A stretch of DNA of 64,000 nucleotides from an uncultured bacterium (lineage in GTDB: Bacteria; Omnitrophota; Omnitrophia; Omnitrophales; Abzuiibacteriaceae), in contig CAYLXA010000008.1 in NCBI GenBank assembly GCA_964387845.1, positions 32,001 to 96,000 on the forward strand, given 5' to 3'. The notes under the pieces were generated by a model, which saw nothing but the letters and a program-made list of their open reading frames with translations, had not been told where the DNA came from and ran no database searches. Shown in pieces: positions 2,704-64,000 of the stretch (within the stretch, counting starts at the first letter, position 1; every line of letters begins with the position of its first letter). The position numbers and the translations under genes were made by a program.

Positions 2704-2931
2704 ATGTTCGACCAAATCAAAGTGATGATGAAGATGATGCAGGACCCGGACTTTCGGGCATTTATTTCACATCCGAAAGTTCAGGAAGTTTTTAAGGATC
2801 CGGCGTTTCAGGATGTGATTAAATCAAAGGATCCTGCGAAGGTGATGGCACATCCAAAGATGCAGATTTTGATGTCAAACCCCGAAGTTGCAACTCTTAT
2901 TCGCAAGGTAGATTTCACAAAATTTACGTGA
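2704..2931 (+). CDS. small hypothetical protein with repeated DPxF/HPK[VM]Q units (STI1/DP-like)
   Basis: GGAGG lies 7 nt upstream of ATG 2704. There is an internal repeat (DPDFRAF..HPKVQEVF / DPAFQDV..HPKMQILM). It has no homolog recognisable by eye. Confidence 0.4.
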   Translation: MFDQIKVMMKMMQDPDFRAFISHPKVQEVFKDPAFQDVIKSKDPAKVMAHPKMQILMSNPEVATLIRKVDFTKFT

Positions 2932-3003
2932 TTTTTGGCTTAGAAATTACAGGTAAAAAACAGTAACTAATTTAAATAGTTATAAAAAACTTATAAAAGT
3001 ACT

Positions 3004-3032
3004 TGACAAGTACCTGTCATAGTGTTAAATTA
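3004..3032 (+). promoter_or_regulatory. putative sigma70 promoter TTGACA-16-TTAAAT
   Basis: cttgacaagtacctgtcatagtgttaaat. It sits at the head of a ~620 nt largely non-coding, hairpin-rich region. Confidence 0.4.
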
Positions 3033-3359
3033 ACCGTAGATATATGAAATTAATCCATATATCCGGTATTTCGGCAGATAGATAAATTAAACAGTGACTT
3101 GCAGTGCCGAAATCAGTACAATGCAGGTCGCAATTCAAATGGCACTTGATGAGCCGCTCGAATTGCCGGCAGAATTAAGCGACTCTCTGGGCTGGATAGA
3201 GAGGGATTTAACATGAAAACCAATAGCTTAAAGTTCTGCTACTCCCGCTTAGACCCGACTCAAAAATCTTCTCTTTCCGCCGTCTTTTCCGATTTGTTCT
3301 CAGGCATCCAAAAATTCAACACCGTTTATAAACGCCAGGGCGAAGGTGTGATTTCAATC

Positions 3360-3560
3360 GAAGCGCTCAGGACACCGCGCCACCCGCGCGGTGCCAGACA
3401 AACGAGCGGCCACCCGCCGCTTAACCAACTGGCACCGAGCCGTATCGGTCGAATCCGCGCAGCTAGTCTGCAGCGTCCTCTCTGGCCTTCTGGAGCCTGT
3501 CTGCCGGCGGGTGACGGAAGCCGGGGAGTTCGTCCCGGCGTTTACCTTTTTTGATTTAAC
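3360..3560 (+). ncRNA. GC-rich (~65%) highly structured segment inside an AT-rich intergenic region; candidate structured RNA or leader of unknown class
   Basis: It contains several strong hairpins: caccgcgc-cacc-cgcgcggtg, cggtgccag..ctggcaccg, and ccggggagttcgtcccgg followed by tttacctttttt. The overlapping ORFs 3213..3554 and 3391..3657 translate to R/P/G-rich low-complexity peptide. Confidence 0.3.
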
Positions 3561-3653
3561 ATCCGGCAGCGAACAACGAACACTTGCGCAAATGCGCGAG
3601 TGCCATCTCGCGGGGCTTAAGGATAGCCCCGTCTCGATAGGAGGAGAATCAAA
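3557..3653 (+). promoter_or_regulatory. conserved 5' leader, copy A (upstream of 3654 gene)
   Basis: About 75% identical to copy B. It has the box CGAACACT..ATG.GCGAGTGCCATCTC, a hairpin (ggggct-taaggat-agcccc) and ATAGGAGGAG. It encodes a 21-aa uORF (3592..3657, MRECHLAGLKDSPVSIGGESK) whose TGA overlaps the main ATG. Confidence 0.55.
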
Positions 3654-4172
3654 ATGAGAATGATAAACCTCATATTATTGGTACTAGGGATATTGACGAT
3701 TTCCGGACCAGCATTTGCTCAAAAGCCATTAGCTGATTATGGCAACGTACCTCAAAATGCGGTGAGTGGAGTTGCGGACGCAGAACCGCCTTTTATTTTG
3801 GAGCTCGACGCGGGAGGCAATCAGTTTCGGGGAGGCAGGCAAATCGTGGTTAACCTTGATTTCACGAATACGTCTTCCTCAGCTAGGGTAGACAACATTG
3901 AGTTTGCTTTCGGTATCACGCCTGCCAGCGAACCTGCGAATCCTGTTTTTCAGGATTACGGCATTGTTGATAGTGCCTTTTCACGCGGCGGAAAATATAC
4001 GATCTATACCGCAAAAGTCGTACTGACAACCGGCGATTACGATGTTTGGAGTATAGTCACTTCGACCGATCAATTTGGCAATTATTCGAACGGCTGGACA
4101 AAAAAACGAATTGTGGTAACTGGCGGTCCGATACCTGTTCAATCGACGGATGTTGCGGTAGGTAAGTCATAA
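3654..4172 (+). CDS. secreted hypothetical protein (172 aa)
   Basis: Signal peptide (MRMINLILLVLGILTISGPAFA), a good RBS, and a terminator hairpin cgggactgtcccgg downstream at ~4193..4207. Confidence 0.6.
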   Translation: MRMINLILLVLGILTISGPAFAQKPLADYGNVPQNAVSGVADAEPPFILELDAGGNQFRGGRQIVVNLDFTNTSSSARVDNIEFAFGITPASEPANPVFQDYGIVDSAFSRGGKYTIYTAKVVLTTGDYDVWSIVTSTDQFGNYSNGWTKKRIVVTGGPIPVQSTDVAVGKS

Positions 4173-4215
4173 AAATAAAGTTTAAACCAACAATCGGGAC
4201 TGTCCCGGATTCAAA

Positions 4216-4312
4216 ACAATCCGGCGGAGAAAGACGAACACTCACACATGATGTGCGAGTGCCATCTCTCGAGACTCAAAGAAGTCTCGTATCGATAGAG
4301 GAGGAATAAAAA
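4216..4312 (+). promoter_or_regulatory. conserved 5' leader, copy B (upstream of 4313 gene)
   Basis: It shares the GCGAGTGCCATCTC box with copy A. Its hairpin (gagact-caaaga-agtctc) has compensatory changes relative to copy A. It encodes a 16-aa uORF (4248..4298, MMCECHLSRLKEVSYR). Confidence 0.55.
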
Positions 4313-6190
4313 GTGAATACTATGAAAGTAAATACTGCCGTAGCGTGGTTAACTTTGTATCTAGGAAATACCAAACTTGTAAAAAATAGTCGTTGCCTAG
4401 TGATTGCACTTGCATTGATGGGTTTTCCACCGCTGTTATTTGCAGAAACTCCAACTTTTGATTGGCTCCGAACCGTTCAAAATTTACAGGATGCACATAC
4501 TTCAACTGCTCATAAAGTCGCAGTTGACTCTGAGGGGAATGTTATCGTGATCGGACACTTCCATGGAACGATGAATTTCAATCCCGGACAAAATCCGCCT
4601 GTTTTGTTAACTTCCACCAATAGCTTCTATAATATTTTTATAACCAAGTACCGGCAAAACGGAGACCATGTTTGGACAAAAGCGATAGGTGGAGATTATT
4701 CTACTCTCTCTTTCTCGTCTTTTTTGGGGGTTGATCCCTACAGTCATCTTGTCATCGATCAAGACAATAACATTATTATTGCAGGCTACTTTGTAGGTTC
4801 GTCCGATTTCGATCCTTCTGAAGACACTGACATTCATGAGTCTAAGGGAGGGCGTGATATTTTTATTACAAAACTTTCGAATGATGGCTCCTATCAATAT
4901 ACTGTTACGATGGGCGGCGAAAGAGACGACATCCCTCTTGACCTTGCTCTTGACGCAACAGGTAGTTTGGTGCTCACCGGATTTTTTACTTCACCAGCTG
5001 TCGATTTTGATCCTACTTATGAAGGAACCGATACTCATCTGCTTCAAAGCAGTGTGGGCGGTTTTATAACGAAACTTGGCAACAATGGATCGTATGAATG
5101 GACACATACCTTTGACGGGTTCCCGAACGGTTTGATGGCGGGGAAAAGTGTGGCGATTAATCGTTCGAGAGAAATTTATGCTATGGGCATATTCCAAGGT
5201 CAGGTTGATTTTGATCCTACTGAAAACGAAGATATCCGCACCTCTAACGGCGAGCGGGATATTTACCTGACCAAATTTTCACCCAATGGAGCTTATATTT
5301 CCACGTTGATTTTTGGTGGCTCTCTGCGAGAACGGCCGACGGCAGTTCGAATCGATTCCCAGGATAACCTATATTTAACAGGCTCTTTTAATGACCGTGT
5401 TGATTTTGATCCAACAGCGGGCGAAGATTTTCACGAAGCCGTGAATATATGCGCTCCCAACGTCTGCGGTGATATTTTCATAACGAAAGTCACGGCTGAT
5501 CATTCTTACCAATGGACTAAAACCATAGGAGCGCCGGTATTGAATCGTCCTTACTATATGCACTTGGATTCAGAGGGCAATGTTTATTTGACCGGTAGTT
5601 TTGGTGGGACAATTGATTTTGATCCAACCAACGGAACTGATTTTCACACCGCTATCGCCTCTACGGACATTTATGCAGTCAAAATTTATACAGACGGAAG
5701 TTATGGATGGGCAGTCAATATGGGGTATGATTCAGGCCCGTTTGGCAGCGCTCCCACGAATCATCATCTAGGATCCGGTTTGGCAACGGACAGAGATCAA
5801 AATGCAATCTTGGTTGGCTTTTTCCGTTATCAGGTTGATTTTGACCCTGGCCCAGGAATTGTTTGGGGTTTAACTCGCACTTATTTTGAATCTGCTTTTA
5901 TTCTTCAGTTAAGACCACGATATTCCTTGAATATTAATGTGGTCGGAAGAGGAGCAGTTGTCAGACAGCCCGATCTCTCAACTTATGGAAGAGGAGAAGC
6001 AGTGTTGTTAAGAGCGGTTCGGGAAAATGCAAGATGGGATTTTGAGCGTTGGAGTGGAGATTTAATGGGGGCTCGGAATCCGGTGATTATTGGCTTCAAT
6101 CGAGATACTCAAATCACCGCTTGGTTTACTGCTAGAGGACCTGAGCCGCTTGCGATAGATTTTGTACCAAATGATGATAAAAATCAGTGA
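4313..6190 (+). CDS. secreted beta-propeller repeat protein (SBBP-like; repeated DFDP...G..D.F.TK...G.Y.WT units)
   Basis: GTG start with GGAGG 11 nt upstream. It has a signal peptide and at least 8 repeats of the ~50-aa motif ...G..DFDP(T/S)...D.H...(G)..DIF(I/L)TK(L/F)..DGSY.WTK..GG. Confidence 0.75.
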   Translation: MNTMKVNTAVAWLTLYLGNTKLVKNSRCLVIALALMGFPPLLFAETPTFDWLRTVQNLQDAHTSTAHKVAVDSEGNVIVIGHFHGTMNFNPGQNPPVLLTSTNSFYNIFITKYRQNGDHVWTKAIGGDYSTLSFSSFLGVDPYSHLVIDQDNNIIIAGYFVGSSDFDPSEDTDIHESKGGRDIFITKLSNDGSYQYTVTMGGERDDIPLDLALDATGSLVLTGFFTSPAVDFDPTYEGTDTHLLQSSVGGFITKLGNNGSYEWTHTFDGFPNGLMAGKSVAINRSREIYAMGIFQGQVDFDPTENEDIRTSNGERDIYLTKFSPNGAYISTLIFGGSLRERPTAVRIDSQDNLYLTGSFNDRVDFDPTAGEDFHEAVNICAPNVCGDIFITKVTADHSYQWTKTIGAPVLNRPYYMHLDSEGNVYLTGSFGGTIDFDPTNGTDFHTAIASTDIYAVKIYTDGSYGWAVNMGYDSGPFGSAPTNHHLGSGLATDRDQNAILVGFFRYQVDFDPGPGIVWGLTRTYFESAFILQLRPRYSLNINVVGRGAVVRQPDLSTYGRGEAVLLRAVRENARWDFERWSGDLMGARNPVIIGFNRDTQITAWFTARGPEPLAIDFVPNDDKNQ

Positions 6191-6192
6191 GT

Positions 6193-6245
6193 AATTGGGG
6201 TCAGTTCTTGAAAATTGAACGGCATTCAAAATTCAAGAATCGACC
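6193..6245. repeat. hairpin repeat, family 1 copy 1 (attggggtcagttcttgaa..ttcaagaa..gacc); likely terminator
   Basis: Imperfect palindrome immediately 3' of the 4313 gene. It is near-identical to 7786..7846. Confidence 0.6.
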
Positions 6246-6303
6246 TGAATAATCCGGCAAAATAAAAACAATTGCGGCAGCGGGAAAATAGGAGGAATAA
6301 AAA

Positions 6304-7770
6304 ATGAAAACGATAAAAACGATATTAATGTTAATGATAGCAACTTTTTCAATAGCAGGAGCGGCATTTGCAGACGGTTCAATTTCACCGTCGCCGGGTC
6401 TGACCGCGGCGTATGTGAATATTCCGCGTTCAAGCTGGCTGTTTGCATATTCTTCACCAAACGACGGAGCACAAGCACAACTTGTTGGAGACATTGTCCG
6501 CGTGACCCCGCCGGGCGGTAATTTTATTTATTCCATTAGCGGCGGATGGACGTTCGATAATCCGGATACTCCGGAAGTGGAAACGTACGACATGAGTTAC
6601 CTTACGTCACTCGTAGTCGGTCTTAAAGGTGGAATTTATACCACCTATGGGCCGGTTTTGGGGATGAGTTTGGAAGATAGCAGTGGAGCGTCTTCGGGCG
6701 TTTCATTGTTGTCTGTGAGCGACTCAACGGAGCAATATTGGTCGGTTCCAACAACCAATTTTTCCGCTGTTGACCTAACACGTGTCAAAAAAGTGACTTT
6801 TGGCGTTGGCTACACCTATAACGCTTCGGGAACAAATTTTGACATTCGCACTGTCCCGCCATCCTCAAATCCTTGTTTGATCAAAGTCCATGCAGGCGAG
6901 TCCATCCAAGCGGCTATTAATCAAGCCTCTGGCGATGGCTGCATGATTTGGGTTAGCGAAGGTACTTACGCAGAAAATATCACGATTGGGCAAGGCCGCA
7001 CTGACCTGAAAAATCTGACCATTTCCGGTGCCGGCATGGAAAAAACGGTGATTCAAGGCAGCGTAGTTGTTGATTTTACAGATCAAGATGGAAATCAAGT
7101 AGACGGTGGCGTGACCAGCATTCAGGATTTGAAAATCACGAACGCGAATTGGGGCGTGACGGTTGTGAATCAGAATGTAGTACTTGATCGCTTAAGATTG
7201 ACAGGGAATCAAGAGGGGGTTGTTGTCACGAGCGTTCGGGGCAATGTTGTTGTAGAAGGAAGCCCTAACGTGACAATTCAGCGCTCAGTAATCGATCATA
7301 ATACAGGCATCGGCGCTACGTTTTATCACGCCAACGAATTGAAGGCGTTTTTGGTCAATAACACCATTGTTGATAATAGTTTTGTGGGCGTGTTTGCACA
7401 ATTACCAGGACCGCAAACCCATCATCTAACTTTAATCAACAATATCATTTCGAGAAACTTCATCGGAATGGAAAATCATTCCGCGCCGAACGCCATAGTC
7501 AAGACTTTGTATGAATACAATGATAACTATGGAAATACCGCTGTTGATATACAAGGTGTTTTTAATTTTGTAGGAGATCAAAGCACCAATTTAAACGTTG
7601 ATCCGTTGTTTGTAAATCCAGCAGCCGGAAATTATCACTTACGGAGAGCATCGCCTATGATCAATGCGGGTGACCCGGTTTCACCTCGCGATCCGGATGG
7701 AAGCCGTTCGGATATCGGTGCGCTTCCGTTTTTTGGGAGGGTGATGAGTGTTGGATCAATCGAAGTTTAG
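6304..7770 (+). CDS. secreted right-handed parallel beta-helix repeat protein (pectate-lyase/NosD-like fold)
   Basis: Signal peptide (MKTIKTILMLMIATFSIAGAAFA). It shows repeated ~22-aa beta-helix rungs (NITIGQG.., VTVVNQNVVLDRLRLTGN.., NVTIQRSVIDHNTGIG..) and a conserved RBS ataggaggaataaaaaATG. Confidence 0.7.
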   Translation: MKTIKTILMLMIATFSIAGAAFADGSISPSPGLTAAYVNIPRSSWLFAYSSPNDGAQAQLVGDIVRVTPPGGNFIYSISGGWTFDNPDTPEVETYDMSYLTSLVVGLKGGIYTTYGPVLGMSLEDSSGASSGVSLLSVSDSTEQYWSVPTTNFSAVDLTRVKKVTFGVGYTYNASGTNFDIRTVPPSSNPCLIKVHAGESIQAAINQASGDGCMIWVSEGTYAENITIGQGRTDLKNLTISGAGMEKTVIQGSVVVDFTDQDGNQVDGGVTSIQDLKITNANWGVTVVNQNVVLDRLRLTGNQEGVVVTSVRGNVVVEGSPNVTIQRSVIDHNTGIGATFYHANELKAFLVNNTIVDNSFVGVFAQLPGPQTHHLTLINNIISRNFIGMENHSAPNAIVKTLYEYNDNYGNTAVDIQGVFNFVGDQSTNLNVDPLFVNPAAGNYHLRRASPMINAGDPVSPRDPDGSRSDIGALPFFGRVMSVGSIEV

Positions 7771-7785
7771 AGCGCGTTAATGAAT

Positions 7786-7846
7786 CATTGGGGTCAGTTC
7801 TTGAATTTTGAAGACCGTTCAATTTTCAAGAACCGACCCCAGTAAC
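7786..7846. repeat. hairpin repeat, family 1 copy 2; likely terminator
   Basis: cattggggtcagttcttgaattttgaagaccgttcaattttcaagaaccgaccccag lies 3' of the 6304 gene. The stem is 20+ bp. Confidence 0.6.
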
Positions 7847-60743: not shown

Positions 60744-60774
60744 AGAAATAAAGCGGTTTCTGAGAATCAAATAC

Positions 60775-60812
60775 AAAACGGGACAGCTTTTAAGCTGTCC
60801 CGTTTTGTATTT
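60775..60812 (+). terminator. rho-independent terminator
   Basis: aaaacgggacagc-ttttaa-gctgtcccgtttt + gtattt. Confidence 0.75.
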
Positions 60813-60957
60813 GACCCTTCTGTGTAGGTTCTAGCAATTCAGATTCTGATATGAAAGGTTACAATATTAGGTCGATAAATATATATAATCGGTATATTCA
60901 ATTTAGAATATCAATGTAAGTCTTTTATTTATAATACTTTATGTATTTATATTTCAT

Positions 60958-60986
60958 TTGAACAAACGAGATTAAAGTGCTAAGAT
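60958..60986 (+). promoter_or_regulatory. putative sigma70 promoter TTGAAC-17-TAAGAT in a 190-nt AT-rich tract
   Basis: catttgaacaaacgagattaaagtgctaagat lies 15 nt upstream of ATG 61001. Confidence 0.35.
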
Positions 60987-61000
60987 TCGATCACGGTTAA

Positions 61001-64000
61001 ATGAAAGTTATGCAAGGCCAAAAATATACCGCTCACCTTAAATTTGTTTCCTTATTCTTAATTATCACACTTCTTTTAAACTCAGTTGCTTGGGCAGATC
61101 CGCCGAACGCTCATTTCTCGAAACTACCGCCCCATGTTTCGGTTTCTCATGTTAGTGAACCGATTCAACTCCGCGATTTAAATGTCCTCGTTGATTACTT
61201 GACCGCCGACTTAAAGAACGAAGTTAAAATTGATATATCCAAAGAAACAGGAATCATTCGATCTATTTTACGACATGATTCGCATTCTAGCCCTTTTGAT
61301 TTTGATGTTGTTTTAATTCAGGATGCGCATGTCGATAACGAAGCGCAAACCAATATTCGACAAATTCTTCATTCTTTGTCAAAACAGATCGACCAACCGT
61401 TACTTATTGCGTTGGAGGGTACGAGCGGAAATTTAGAACCGAATATATTAAATTTCTTTCCGGACTATCCAAAAATCAATTCAATAATTGTGGAGGACTT
61501 GGAAAAGAGGGGAGAGCTGACAGGCGCTGAACGCTTCGCGTTTGAAAATCAACGGAATAAAACGCTTCTGGAATTTTGGGGGGCCGAAAACATTGATCAA
61601 TACAAACAAAACCTTTCCGAATTTCGAGACGCTCTTCGGTTTTTTATAAATCATACCTCAGAACTCGAGCAAGCTGAGAGCCGGCTTGCCGGATTTCGCA
61701 AGCAAATTTTGAATCCTGAATTATGGTTCTTCCTAGAAAAGAGGGATGCTTTTTTAAAGGAAGAAGTTGATTTAGCTGCTTATCTTACTTTTCTTCAGAG
61801 TGAGGCGATTCAGCATATAAAGCTTAATTTAGCCGATATTAAGCACCAATTTGATTTTCCAAATCTGGTTCGCTTTTCAAAACTTAAATACGAGGAAAAT
61901 AAATTAAATCCTGAAAAGGCTTTGGAAGAATGCAGCAAACTTCTCTCTCTCGTTCAGAAGGAAATACCGAAAGGAAAAATTCAAAGTTATCTAACAGAAC
62001 ATCTCTGGCATCTTTCAAGAGATGTTTCTTTGCAACTGCCACAAAGTTCTCATCAAAATTTTTTTACTTCTGACCGACCTGTTATTACAGAAAAATCGCC
62101 GAACGTACGAGAGTTGTTTGAAATACTTCACGCTTCTTCGTTTATCTACAAATTTTCATTAGTACCGTTTCGAAACCTCATCCGTCTCGGACGTTTTTTG
62201 GCATTTCAATCGGAAATTGATGCCGCATCATTTTTTCAGGAGGTCCGTAAATTAGAAAGTTTGATCATTCGACGATTGGCCAAAACGCGCGAAGAGAAAA
62301 GACTTTTAGCTGCTGTGACTCGATGGAATTTGGTAAAAAAACTTTATGCACTTGAACTCAGTCGTTCGGAATTTTTGGATTATCAAAAATCGAAGCCACG
62401 GATATTAAAAACAATCTTGCGCTTTTTCCCCGCGCTTCCGGCGCCTGCACTTTCAGAAAAATTCTACGATGGAGCATTAAAGCGCGACCATGTTCTTGTC
62501 CAAAACGCGCTTAATCATGCGGCCGGACGGCCCGTCATCATGGTAGCGGGCGGGTTTCATGCTGACGGAATCGAATCTTATCTTCAAGACAACAATTTAT
62601 CGTACGCAACCATTTCTCCGTCTATCAAAAACCCGAGCAAAGACCGCGAATCCTATTTTAAAACCTTTCAAGACGAAAACATCTCCTTTATTGTGGATAT
62701 GCTGCGCACGAGCAATCCCGGCTTTTTTCGATCTGTCCGCGGCGAAAGACAATTCAATCTATTCGCTTTGGCAATTAGAAATCAGGAGGCCAATTTAGTT
62801 CGCATTTATTCTTTGACCCCCGAACAAGCGCGCTCGGAAATCAGGCAGGCGCTGGATCGGTGGCGTTTTCAATCCAGATCGGAATTGCGGCAAGACAGAA
62901 GTACCATTGTTACACCTGATAAAATCGAATCAAATTTTTCCAACAGTTCAGCAAGTCGCGCTCGAGAAACGATCATTCCTCAAAGAATTCATCCCGGCAC
63001 AATTGAAAAAATGCAAATTCCGTGGAGTTACAAATTAAGTCCAAAGTATTTTTGGAATTATCACAAAGCTTTAAGCCTGTCGGGCCTGGTTGTTTTTGGC
63101 CTGCTTTTATTTACAGCCGTAACCGGAAGAATTTTAGAACCGTTTACTGTTTTTTACTCCACGGTTTTTGCAGGCCTTTTAATGGCTCAAGCGGCCCGGT
63201 TTATCAAGAACCTCCTGATTCCTCCGGCGCATTATGTCATGCGAGATGACGGTGTCGCATTATTAGATACTCATAACATAGAAATATTAAATCAAATCGT
63301 CTATCAATCCGAGATTCCATCCGCGATTTACATTGCCGTTGAAGATCAATTTGAAGGCAAAGATGAGAAAAGGCCGAATTATGAGGCCGTAAAAGCCTAT
63401 GTTGAATTTCGCCAGGGATCATCACAGGGGTTTCGAAAAGTGAAAATCATTCCGCTCAGTAGATTGGGGCGGTTGTATTACACAAACCTTTACAATCAAA
63501 ATCAAACCGGTGTGAAAAACATCATTTCAAGAAGTTTTCTCTTTGTGTGGAAATGGAAATTGTGGATATGGATGCCTTTACTGCTTCCGGTTTGGTTGGC
63601 CGCAAATTTTCTCACGTTTGGTTATCTCAATCACGATTCTTTAATTCATTTTTACGGCGTAAAACCATTGCAAGGATGGGTAAGCTTGACGGATGTATCC
63701 GAATGGCTTCTGCATCTCAAATGGAGTTTTCTGCATCGAATCGAAATTCTCTTGTTCCTGGCGAATGATTGGTTTAACAACACAAACAGCCTGTCCCCAT
63801 GGTTTCAAACTATCGTATCGAATATTTTAACCAATCTAAGCGCCAAGTTATTTTCGTTATCAGAAACGCCGGGGTTATTCAGCTTGTACGCGGCAAAAGA
63901 AAAGGCAACAGACTACATTGCCTGGACTACGGTGATGGAGTCACTGACGTTTATCAGTTTTTTAGGTTTGGTAACGTTGGCGATGCTTTGGCTCCATTGG
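61001..64000 (+). CDS. large secreted/membrane protein, >=1000 aa, 3' end beyond window; absent from the ORF track (no in-window stop); carries an RSELRQ motif
   Basis: Hand translation of the frame starting at 61001 gives no stop codon through 64000. N-terminus MKVMQGQKYTAHLKFVSLFLIITLLLNSVAWADPP (signal peptide). It contains ...FQSRSELRQDRS... at ~62873..62890 and TM helices after ~63060. Confidence 0.7.
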   Translation, partial: MKVMQGQKYTAHLKFVSLFLIITLLLNSVAWADPPNAHFSKLPPHVSVSHVSEPIQLRDLNVLVDYLTADLKNEVKIDISKETGIIRSILRHDSHSSPFDFDVVLIQDAHVDNEAQTNIRQILHSLSKQIDQPLLIALEGTSGNLEPNILNFFPDYPKINSIIVEDLEKRGELTGAERFAFENQRNKTLLEFWGAENIDQYKQNLSEFRDALRFFINHTSELEQAESRLAGFRKQILNPELWFFLEKRDAFLKEEVDLAAYLTFLQSEAIQHIKLNLADIKHQFDFPNLVRFSKLKYEENKLNPEKALEECSKLLSLVQKEIPKGKIQSYLTEHLWHLSRDVSLQLPQSSHQNFFTSDRPVITEKSPNVRELFEILHASSFIYKFSLVPFRNLIRLGRFLAFQSEIDAASFFQEVRKLESLIIRRLAKTREEKRLLAAVTRWNLVKKLYALELSRSEFLDYQKSKPRILKTILRFFPALPAPALSEKFYDGALKRDHVLVQNALNHAAGRPVIMVAGGFHADGIESYLQDNNLSYATISPSIKNPSKDRESYFKTFQDENISFIVDMLRTSNPGFFRSVRGERQFNLFALAIRNQEANLVRIYSLTPEQARSEIRQALDRWRFQSRSELRQDRSTIVTPDKIESNFSNSSASRARETIIPQRIHPGTIEKMQIPWSYKLSPKYFWNYHKALSLSGLVVFGLLLFTAVTGRILEPFTVFYSTVFAGLLMAQAARFIKNLLIPPAHYVMRDDGVALLDTHNIEILNQIVYQSEIPSAIYIAVEDQFEGKDEKRPNYEAVKAYVEFRQGSSQGFRKVKIIPLSRLGRLYYTNLYNQNQTGVKNIISRSFLFVWKWKLWIWMPLLLPVWLAANFLTFGYLNHDSLIHFYGVKPLQGWVSLTDVSEWLLHLKWSFLHRIEILLFLANDWFNNTNSLSPWFQTIVSNILTNLSAKLFSLSETPGLFSLYAAKEKATDYIAWTTVMESLTFISFLGLVTLAMLWLHW

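Follow-up and report, generated by a model that had tools for sequence, protein, structure and literature searches.

Two neighbouring genes for secreted proteins in an uncultured bacterium of the Omnitrophota are preceded by leaders so similar that they raise the question of what the shared segment does, that is, whether it acts as RNA, encodes a peptide or is a duplicated piece of DNA with no role of its own. The genes lie in a stretch of 64,000 nucleotides (GenBank assembly GCA_964387845.1, contig CAYLXA010000008.1, positions 32,001 to 96,000), referred to below as the window, and all features are given in its coordinates on the plus strand. The initial annotation of this DNA had described a conserved leader of about 95 nt with one covarying hairpin and a tiny conserved upstream open reading frame (uORF), and had read it either as a cis-regulatory RNA or as a leader-peptide or translational-coupling device. 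We found that each leader contains a module predicted to fold into two hairpins upstream of the Shine-Dalgarno (SD) sequence. In the reading that we prefer, with a probability of about 0.5, the module is a cis-acting structured segment of leader RNA that gates or occludes the SD and that was inserted and then copied.

Two adjacent leaders share a two-hairpin module

Global alignment of the leaders at 3557–3653 and 4216–4312 gave 74 identical columns out of 100, in line with the identity of about 75% first reported. In the MAFFT alignment A3, the core of the leaders spans 93 columns, 22 of them substituted and 4 gapped. The product of gene 1 is a 172-aa secreted protein and that of gene 2 a 625-aa SBBP beta-propeller protein (Pfam), and both have signal-peptide-like N-termini, as the initial annotation had held for secreted proteins. 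The upstream box and ribosome-binding site that it had listed as shared were also found: ATCCGGC, ACGAACACT, TCGATAG and a GGAGG-type SD are common to both leaders. Its invariant 14-mer, GCGAGTGCCATCTC, is indeed identical in the two, occurs exactly twice in the 64-kb window (at 3596 and 4255) and has no copy there with one or two mismatches. A covariance model built from the two copies (R1) scored copy 1 at 110.6 bits and copy 2 at 110.7 bits, and at most 16 bits anywhere else in the window, so the similarity of the leaders is beyond chance.

Both leaders are built in the same order. In lead 1, an ancestral ATCCGGC box (3561..3567) is followed just 3' by module copy 1 (3569..3638). The predicted fold of this copy consists of a lower stem (GCGA 3569–3572 with UCGC 3608–3611), hairpin P1 (3581–3602) and hairpin P2 (3611–3631), which is followed by the linker GUCUCGAU; the 14-mer (3596–3609) comprises the 3' arm of P1 and CCAUCUC. 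The SD of gene 1, GGAGGAG (3640–3646), and its start codon ATG at 3654 complete the leader (3640..3656). In lead 2, the ancestral box ATCCGGCGGAGAAAGA (4219..4234) is followed directly 3' by a 60-nt insertion, CGAACACT...GTATCG (4235..4294), which is module copy 2. Here P1 lies at 4239–4261, the 14-mer at 4255–4268 and P2 at 4270–4289, while the lower stem pairs an ancestral GAGA (4227–4230) with UCUC (4267–4270); the SD AGAGGAGGA and the start codon GTG at 4313 of gene 2 follow (4297..4315). The third gene of the cassette, at 6304, had been said to share only the box of the ribosome-binding site. It does share the SD box, but an ATCCGGC box at 6252 is shared as well.

Each copy thus has two hairpins and a weak 4-bp lower stem, 19 pairs in total, where the initial annotation had seen a single hairpin: its hairpin is P2, and P1 (3581–3602 and 4239–4261), the lower stem and the ability of the invariant CCAUCUC to pair with the SD had been missed. 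Copy 1 has CGGGGCT/AGCCCCG as the arms of P2 and copy 2 has CGAGACT/AGTCTCG, a difference of two double changes from G-C to A-U, and the compensatory changes reported earlier (ggggct/agcccc versus gagact/agtctc) were confirmed on the alignment. P1 is built from conserved ACACU and AGUG boxes that flank a variable, self-complementary centre, and in this hairpin one double change and one half change separate the copies. Covariation is seen in the weak lower stem too, where GCGA/UCGC of copy 1 corresponds to GAGA/UCUC of copy 2. When the 19 pairs were laid on alignment A3, 97% of the cells were paired, with four both-side changes, one one-side change and one broken pair. Substitutions were similarly frequent in stem columns (10/38) and non-stem columns (12/51), those in the stems being paired. 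In simulations that placed 10 random substitutions in the stems under the observed transition bias, at least 18 of the 19 pairs were retained in only 1.2% of runs. Folding each copy as a single sequence recovered both P1 and P2, with z-scores of −3.2 and −2.2. The stems therefore look selected, with compensatory changes, and the pattern is suggestive, from two sequences only.

The modules lie within a probable operon transcript

The best promoter-like site between 3000 and 8000 is a sigma-70-type promoter, TTGACA-17-TAAATT (3003..3031; 10/12 matches with TG), about 610 nt upstream of gene 1. The related loci L002, L004/5, L007-9 and L035 have the identical sequence, TACTTGACAAGTACC, which was seen also in L036, and the site is the probable start of the operon transcript. 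A perfect palindrome, TACTTGACAAGTA (3000–3012), overlaps the −35 hexamer; it is the same in every relative and could act as an operator. Neither a sigma-70-like promoter nor a plus-strand terminator was found in 3557–3653, in 4172–4313 or between gene 1 and gene 2. Both modules would thus be part of the mRNA, that of gene 1 at about 530 nt from the start of the 5' leader and that of gene 2 between the two cistrons. Because both lie inside the transcript that would start at the conserved upstream promoter, we do not regard them as promoters, and their position in transcribed leader RNA makes a role as cis-acting RNA the best reading. As for the cis-regulatory RNA proposed initially, compensatory stems and position in a transcribed leader speak for it; conservation of the leader across lineages does not.

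The module is absent from related lineages and was probably copied within the operon

In six related Omnitrophota lineages, the orthologous leaders lack the module and keep the flanking boxes. In the relatives (L002, L003/L035, L004/L005, L007-L010 and L036), the box is followed by short, unrelated, A/U-rich leaders without a hairpin module, and the region of the ATCCGGC box is conserved in all of them as ATCCGGCA, GTTCGGCA or ATTCGGCA. The term conserved, as first applied to the leader, thus fails in its evolutionary sense. Empty sites for lead 2 are seen in L005, TTCCGGCGGAGAAAGA|ATTAAAAAGGG, and in L003, ATCCGGCGGGGAAAGA|ATAAACGAGG, neither of which has the module, at the place where the window reads ATCCGGCGGAGAAAGA|CGAACACT...(60 nt)...GTATCG|ATAGAGGAGG. 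Relative to these empty sites, the aligned sequences identify the module as a lineage-specific insertion.

The flanks of the two copies point to an order of events. Directly after the box, the first nine bases of lead 1 (GCGAACAAC) resemble the ancestral flank of lead 2 (GAGAAAGAC). Likewise, GCGAACAA in lead 1 is like the ancestral lead 2 flank GAGAAAGA and unlike the orthologous lead 1 sequences AATTCAATG, AATTTTAAA and TTGCACGTG. Since the flank of lead 1 resembles that of lead 2 rather than its own orthologues, we infer that a copy of lead 2 replaced the original lead 1. The module would then have arisen by an insertion of about 60 nt into the leader of gene 2, the insertion and part of the ancestral lead 2 flank would have been copied into the leader of gene 1, and the copies would have diverged by about 25% with their stems kept.

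The closest relative shows how abruptly this region changes. L035 is about 96% identical to the window from a 79-aa gene to position 3548 and then, from its own position 675 onwards, becomes unalignable, just 3' of a conserved structured core described below; its gene 1 has only 62% protein identity to gene 1 of the window. This abrupt divergence implies that the cassette together with its modules represents an allele that has diverged or been exchanged, and the locus looks like a hypervariable or recombining cassette of secreted-protein genes behind a conserved leader.

No further copies and no known RNA family were found

The covariance-model search proposed with the initial annotation was run with R1, filters off, on the window and all fetched loci of relatives, and it returned only the two copies, with nothing else above 16 bits. 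The exact two-box patterns had no match in the GTDB species representatives; two matches in JGI metagenomes and one in IMG/VR were due to chance, lying in GC-rich coding sequence, lacking P2 and SD and scoring at most 10 bits. No similarity was found in plasmid and phage records. Two candidate relatives were rejected: P0041, which has 33% identity to gene 4, and P0054, whose locus lacks the module. The initial annotation had reasoned that, without further copies and without covariation among added homologues, the leaders would simply be a recent tandem duplication of a promoter region. Further copies were indeed lacking, but the two at hand are about 25% diverged, are not promoters and have kept their stems.

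No Rfam 15 family matched the window at gathering score (cmscan), in line with the first reading, which had found no named riboswitch consensus. At relaxed thresholds (E<=10 for 3300–6500 and E<=5 for 2900–3700), only chance-level snoRNA, miRNA, ctRNA, group II intron and RNase MRP matches appeared, none of which overlaps the modules. Riboswitches in general have a covarying aptamer shared by many lineages; the module has two copies in one genome and is absent from six lineages. Only two relatives were found for the 172-aa protein and none above 39% identity for the 625-aa protein, and covariation based on orthologues is impossible because the downstream genes have too few or too distant homologues. 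The module is thus a local curiosity, with two copies in one genome, and not a new widespread class of RNA. It is nonetheless real and structured, and it is probably a functional RNA leader module that tunes translation or mRNA stability by a familiar principle.

Predicted folds suggest occlusion of the Shine-Dalgarno sequence

The predicted architecture suggests how such a module might act. P1, a single-stranded CCAUCUC, P2, a short linker and a strong SD would follow one another, the hairpins directly abutting the ribosome-binding site. The invariant CCAUCUC, together with the CUC of the linker, would pair with the SD across the base of P2 and so lower or gate the initiation of translation. 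In context, the predicted folds leave almost none of the lead 2 SD unpaired, its partner being CC.AUCUCU across the P2 base, and pair part of the lead 1 SD with UCUC and CUC of the module. The SD is open in the third leader, which has no module, and in most orthologous leaders. The predicted cost of opening positions −14 to +3 at 37 °C is 6.4 and 4.0 kcal/mol for the two leaders, and 0.1–2.1 kcal/mol in five of six module-free cassette leaders (lead 3, L002 gene 1, L003 gene 2 and L005 genes 1 and 2). The predicted opening energy falls with temperature, which is a trivial decrease. Occlusion of the SD is, on these models, a plausible mode of action.

Several points weigh against this reading. 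The module-free leader of L003 gene 1 costs 6.0 kcal/mol to open and two unrelated genes of the window cost 5.0–5.3 kcal/mol, so the cost at the SDs of the modules is no outlier, and the register of the SD pairing differs between the copies. The support from covariation is thin, with P about 0.01 from two copies in one genome, and palindromes can keep their symmetry by templated mutation without selection. In addition, pairing in the stems alone leaves the invariant stretches of 9 and 14 nt unexplained.

Other effects of the same structure can be envisaged. Stable 5'-proximal hairpins may also protect the mRNA segment of each cistron, and the invariant, partly unpaired ACGAACACU and GCGAGUGCCAUCUC could serve as a site for a trans-acting factor or for alternative pairing, which would place both genes under the same control. 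The same design recurs upstream, where the SD of a leader ORF, AGAGAGG, is the 3' arm of a hairpin CUCUC...GAGAG in all lineages; hairpins that mask the SD therefore seem to be a theme of the operon. A conserved AAUGGCACU box at 3138–3146 has 8 nt complementary to AGUGCCAU of the modules, and its sequence makes it a possible alternative pairing partner for the invariant sequences. In a more elaborate scheme, which we regard as doubtful, the module would be a portable, sequence-specific SD gate that is read by a trans-acting factor, was copied for co-control and acts together with the core RNA and the leader ORF. The factor acting at ACGAACACU/GCGAGUGCCAUCUC could be a protein, a small RNA or the AAUGGCACU box, and the module, the RNA of about 215 nt at 3329–3544 and the translated leader ORF may form a multi-part leader for the hypervariable Omnitrophota cassette.

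Alternative explanations

The leaders could be a neutral by-product, in which a palindromic insertion was duplicated or converted within the operon, was tolerated as an SD was supplied, has no regulatory role and keeps its symmetry by templated (quasi-palindrome) mutation. We consider this unlikely. It fits the absence of the module from all six related lineages, including L035 with its upstream leader about 96% identical, and the unexceptional opening energy of the SD. Genes 2 and 3 share other duplicated non-coding pieces, D4 behind each of them and D10 at each SD, and the window lineage gained another two-hairpin insertion of about 60 nt, at 3374–3433 in the upstream core; both facts fit a neutral origin. 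However, the copies have diverged by 25% and still keep 18 or 19 of 19 pairs and 23 invariant nucleotides, and the boundaries of the copied piece match a functional unit that runs from the box to the start codon.

Coupling through a leader peptide is less probable still. Here, ribosomes would translate a uORF of 16–21 codons, melt P2 and the SD pairing, terminate near the main start and re-initiate. The 21-aa and 16-aa frames described initially were found with the same stops: uORF1 (MRECHLAGLKDSPVSIGGESK*, 21 codons, 3592..3657) ends in a TGA that overlaps the ATG of gene 1 as ATGA (3654–3657), and uORF2 (MMCECHLSRLKEVSYR*, 16 codons, 4248..4298) ends in a TAG 14 nt before the GTG at 4313. 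The positions of these stops, 0 and 14 nt before the main starts, suit coupling. Termination beside a start also recurs in the relatives, where the long upstream leader ORF ends 0–25 nt before gene 1, and the three codon differences in LK[DE] are all at the third position. On the other hand, the 20 nt before each AUG (AACAACGAACACTTGCGCAA and GAAAGACGAACACTCACAC) contain nothing SD-like and no GGAG-like run, the AUGs sit in the loop and stem of the stable P1, and the first stop codons upstream lie at distances of 38 and 76 nt. The shared ECHL is a translation of the invariant 14-mer, without a synonymous change in its four codons, and a 1-nt indel in the P2 loop shifts the frame, leaving the unrelated SPVSIGGESK and VSYR. 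An open frame of 16–21 codons is itself not unusual, at (61/64)^16 ~0.46 by our own estimate. The case made at first for a conserved peptide is therefore weak, the conservation being limited to identical nucleotides in frames that then diverge, and both uORFs are probably incidental.

That a mobile or repeated palindromic element, REP/BIME-, PATE- or MITE-like, landed twice in the operon is very unlikely. Compared with the empty sites of L003 and L005, the module is a precise insertion of 60 nt, as such an element would leave, and the copies are co-oriented. Y1 transposases recognise hairpin ends, which the two hairpins resemble, and the third, dissimilar two-hairpin insertion at 3374–3433 is flanked by a 5-nt direct repeat, CACCG. 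Yet there are only two copies in 64 kb, both at equal distance from a start codon and each supplying the SD, and no real copy was found in the searched relatives, metagenomes, viral contigs or GTDB representatives. The module has no terminal inverted repeats beyond CGA.AC (its ends being CGAACA... and ...GTMTCG), the empty-site junctions in L003 and L005 reveal no target-site duplication, and the insertion at 3374–3433 has no significant similarity to it. Moreover, copy 1 carries part of the ancestral flank of copy 2, which argues for duplication rather than transposition.

Finally, a DNA-level element, either a promoter for an alternative sigma factor or a palindromic repressor operator for both genes, is highly improbable: it would account for conserved boxes with variable spacers (GAACAC ... 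GAGTGCCATCTC ... CGTMTCGATAG) and for TGGCAC, the −24 hexamer of sigma-54, on the minus strand, TGGCAC/GTGCCA being clustered with 6/16 of its window occurrences in 2846–4264, but the spacers keep their complementarity through double changes that neither an operator nor a promoter needs, TGGCAC is on the wrong strand for the sigma-54 consensus TGGCAC-N5-TTGC and no GC lies at GG-N10-GC spacing in either copy, neither leader has a sigma-70-like pair of hexamers, and a start downstream of the boxes would leave almost no leader. Sigma-54 and ECF-type promoters, read by eye in the sequence, were accordingly rejected on spacing and strand.

Comparison with known systems

If the module does occlude the SD, its closest counterparts are the SD-sequestering hairpins of RNA thermometers (ROSE, fourU) and of the translational expression platforms of riboswitches. 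As in these, hairpins lie in the 5' leader, the 3'-most structure is predicted to pair a pyrimidine-rich anti-SD with the SD, and the effect on initiation would be in cis. A published analogue is an RNA thermometer that controls a secreted toxin (PMC6992388). Unlike these systems, the module matches neither ROSE, fourU nor any other Rfam family, its anti-SD is predicted to pair over a short, interrupted stretch whose register differs between the copies, and it has no aptamer-like core shared across lineages. Leaders bound by CsrA/RsmA offer a second comparison: the hairpin loop of copy 1, UAAGGAU, contains GGA, as does the SD, at a distance that would suit a CsrA dimer. The P2 loop of copy 2, CAAAGA, lacks GGA, and no csrA gene was found, though no search aimed at one was made. 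Repression of a secretion-related gene inside an operon is the published analogue of this type (PMC2896534).

Regulatory leader peptides (ermCL, the cat leader, secM-secA and mifM-yidC2) also have a short ORF that overlaps an SD-masking structure and stops at or next to the main start. In contrast, the uORFs of the module have no SD of their own and no conserved arrest motif, and their peptides are not conserved beyond identical nucleotides. Like REP/BIME and MITE/PATE elements, the module is short, palindromic and cleanly inserted, and compensatory changes between copies are typical of REPs. It differs from them in having two copies only, co-oriented and abutting start codons, one of which carries the flank of the other, and in lacking terminal inverted repeats, a target-site duplication and a GTAG-type head.

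The module further resembles 5' stabilisers such as the hairpin of the ompA 5' untranslated region, the ermC leader and the STAB-SD of Bacillus thuringiensis cryIIIA, in which stable stem-loops and a very strong SD lie 5' of a cistron. The likeness to ompA, ermC and cryIIIA is one of function only. Long 3' palindromes (D4) after genes 2 and 3 match this arrangement, and each gene could be an insulated, stabilised segment of mRNA.

A conserved structured RNA core and a leader ORF lie upstream

Outside the duplicated module, the leader contains a conserved structured core at 3329..3544, about 215 nt long in the window and about 155 nt in relatives (L002 550-722, L005 ~396-560, L007 ~7260-7430, L035 ~517-680 and L036 ~365-530). 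Six Omnitrophota lineages have it in nearly invariant form, against diverging flanks and a diverging downstream gene. The predicted fold is a three-way junction with a 15-bp closing helix, UAAACGCC.GGGCGAA / UUCGUCCC.GGCGUUUA. The consensus fold (RNAalifold) has 61 pairs, many of them G-U, at −76 kcal/mol, and most changes are compatible ones among G-U, G-C and A-U. In L002, the core folds at −81.7 kcal/mol (z −5.5) on the plus strand, against −61.9 kcal/mol (z −2.95) on the minus strand. It had no match in Rfam, and a 19-mer anchor from it had 16 chance matches in GTDB, in unrelated, mostly high-GC genomes, none of them Omnitrophota and none with the CCGGCA box. An alternative fold is available to the 3' arm of the closing helix, a local GC hairpin with a U-rich tract behind it, and the core may on this model be a terminator/antiterminator switch. 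As a candidate for a new cis-regulatory RNA, the core is probably more promising than the duplicated module.

The core lies within a leader ORF of 113 aa (3213–3554), whose SD and ATG are conserved and whose SD lies in the hairpin CUCUC...GAGAG at 3184–3204. Its N-terminal half is poorly conserved and its C-terminal half overlaps the core. The window and L035 read the core in a frame different from that of L002, L005 and L007, which indicates that the core is conserved at the nucleotide level. In the relatives, the leader ORF stops 0–25 nt before the start of gene 1, overlapping it as ATGA in L036. A conserved protein was considered and rejected: the ORF has only two real relatives among 1.84 billion representative proteins, and its codon-position bias is weak.

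At the tip of one arm of the core, the window has a 60-nt GC-rich insertion (3374–3433) that is absent from L035 and all other relatives. The 5-nt direct repeat CACCG flanks it, and it contains two hairpins with similar loops, CACCGCG-ccacc-CGCGGTG and AGCGGC-caccc-GCCGCT, as well as a 9-nt inverted repeat, CGGTGCCAG/CTGGCACCG; the window contains the insertion only once. Both this insertion and the module have a hairpin followed by GTGCCA, and we considered them as one repeat family, which was rejected as MAFFT and blastn-short revealed no significant similarity. The TGGCAC/GTGCCA sites in 2846–4264 are distributed as the leader box AAUGGCAC at 3139, two in this insertion, one in each module and one at 2846.

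The cassette and its surroundings

The homologues of a neighbouring AI-2E transporter are named Candidatus Omnitrophica or Omnitrophota, and the flanking genes are the same in relatives whose transporters are 79–86% identical. In order, the locus comprises an HI0933-like gene, a DUF1318 gene, the 79-aa gene, a long non-coding stretch, the secreted-protein cassette and the transporter. The cassette always begins with a homologue of the 172-aa protein, and its later content varies by lineage. In the window it continues with the 625-aa SBBP protein, a 488-aa beta-helix-like protein with weak DUF5123 and pectinesterase matches below the Pfam cut-offs, and a 528-aa SBBP protein. A 737-aa protein is found in the cassette of L004/5, and one of 590 aa, which matches CIA30/CBM11 faintly, in that of L007.

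Directly after genes 2 and 3 stands a palindromic repeat of about 50 nt, D4 (GGGGTCAGTTCTTGAA..TTCAAGAA.CGACC; 6188–6252 and 7781–7845), whose copies are 78% identical; each has a 2-nt mismatch at its centre, which is AA/AA in one copy and UU/UU in its partner. D4 is probably a terminator or a 3' stabiliser that was duplicated with the cassette units. The boxes ATCCGGC(A/G)G and TGCGGCAGCG recur 20–90 nt upstream of cassette genes in several lineages; sites are found at 3561, 4219, 6252 and 6274–6283 in the window, at ~1322 in L002 and at ~8049 in L007, and CCGGCGG is present in the core too. Over the whole window, ATCCGGC is over-represented, with 29 occurrences observed and 11.6 expected. 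Towards the end of the window (60744–64000), the GC content drops to 0.41–0.42 and the last 3.2 kb contain no complete ORF of at least 100 aa.

Significance

The reach of the module is small, since it is confined to one genome with two copies. If it gates the SD, it would nevertheless be a clean natural case of a regulatory RNA part that was gained by insertion and copied within an operon and that co-regulates neighbouring genes. Of more weight, probably, is the wider context: the cassette, whose gene content and sequence change abruptly between otherwise near-identical relatives, stands behind a conserved promoter and a long leader that has a translated ORF and a very stable sense-strand fold absent from Rfam. 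For the Omnitrophota, essentially no RNA regulation has been described, and in the library searched no paper links Omnitrophota to 'noncoding RNA'; in this phylum, the long leader is a testable candidate for a new cis-regulatory RNA.

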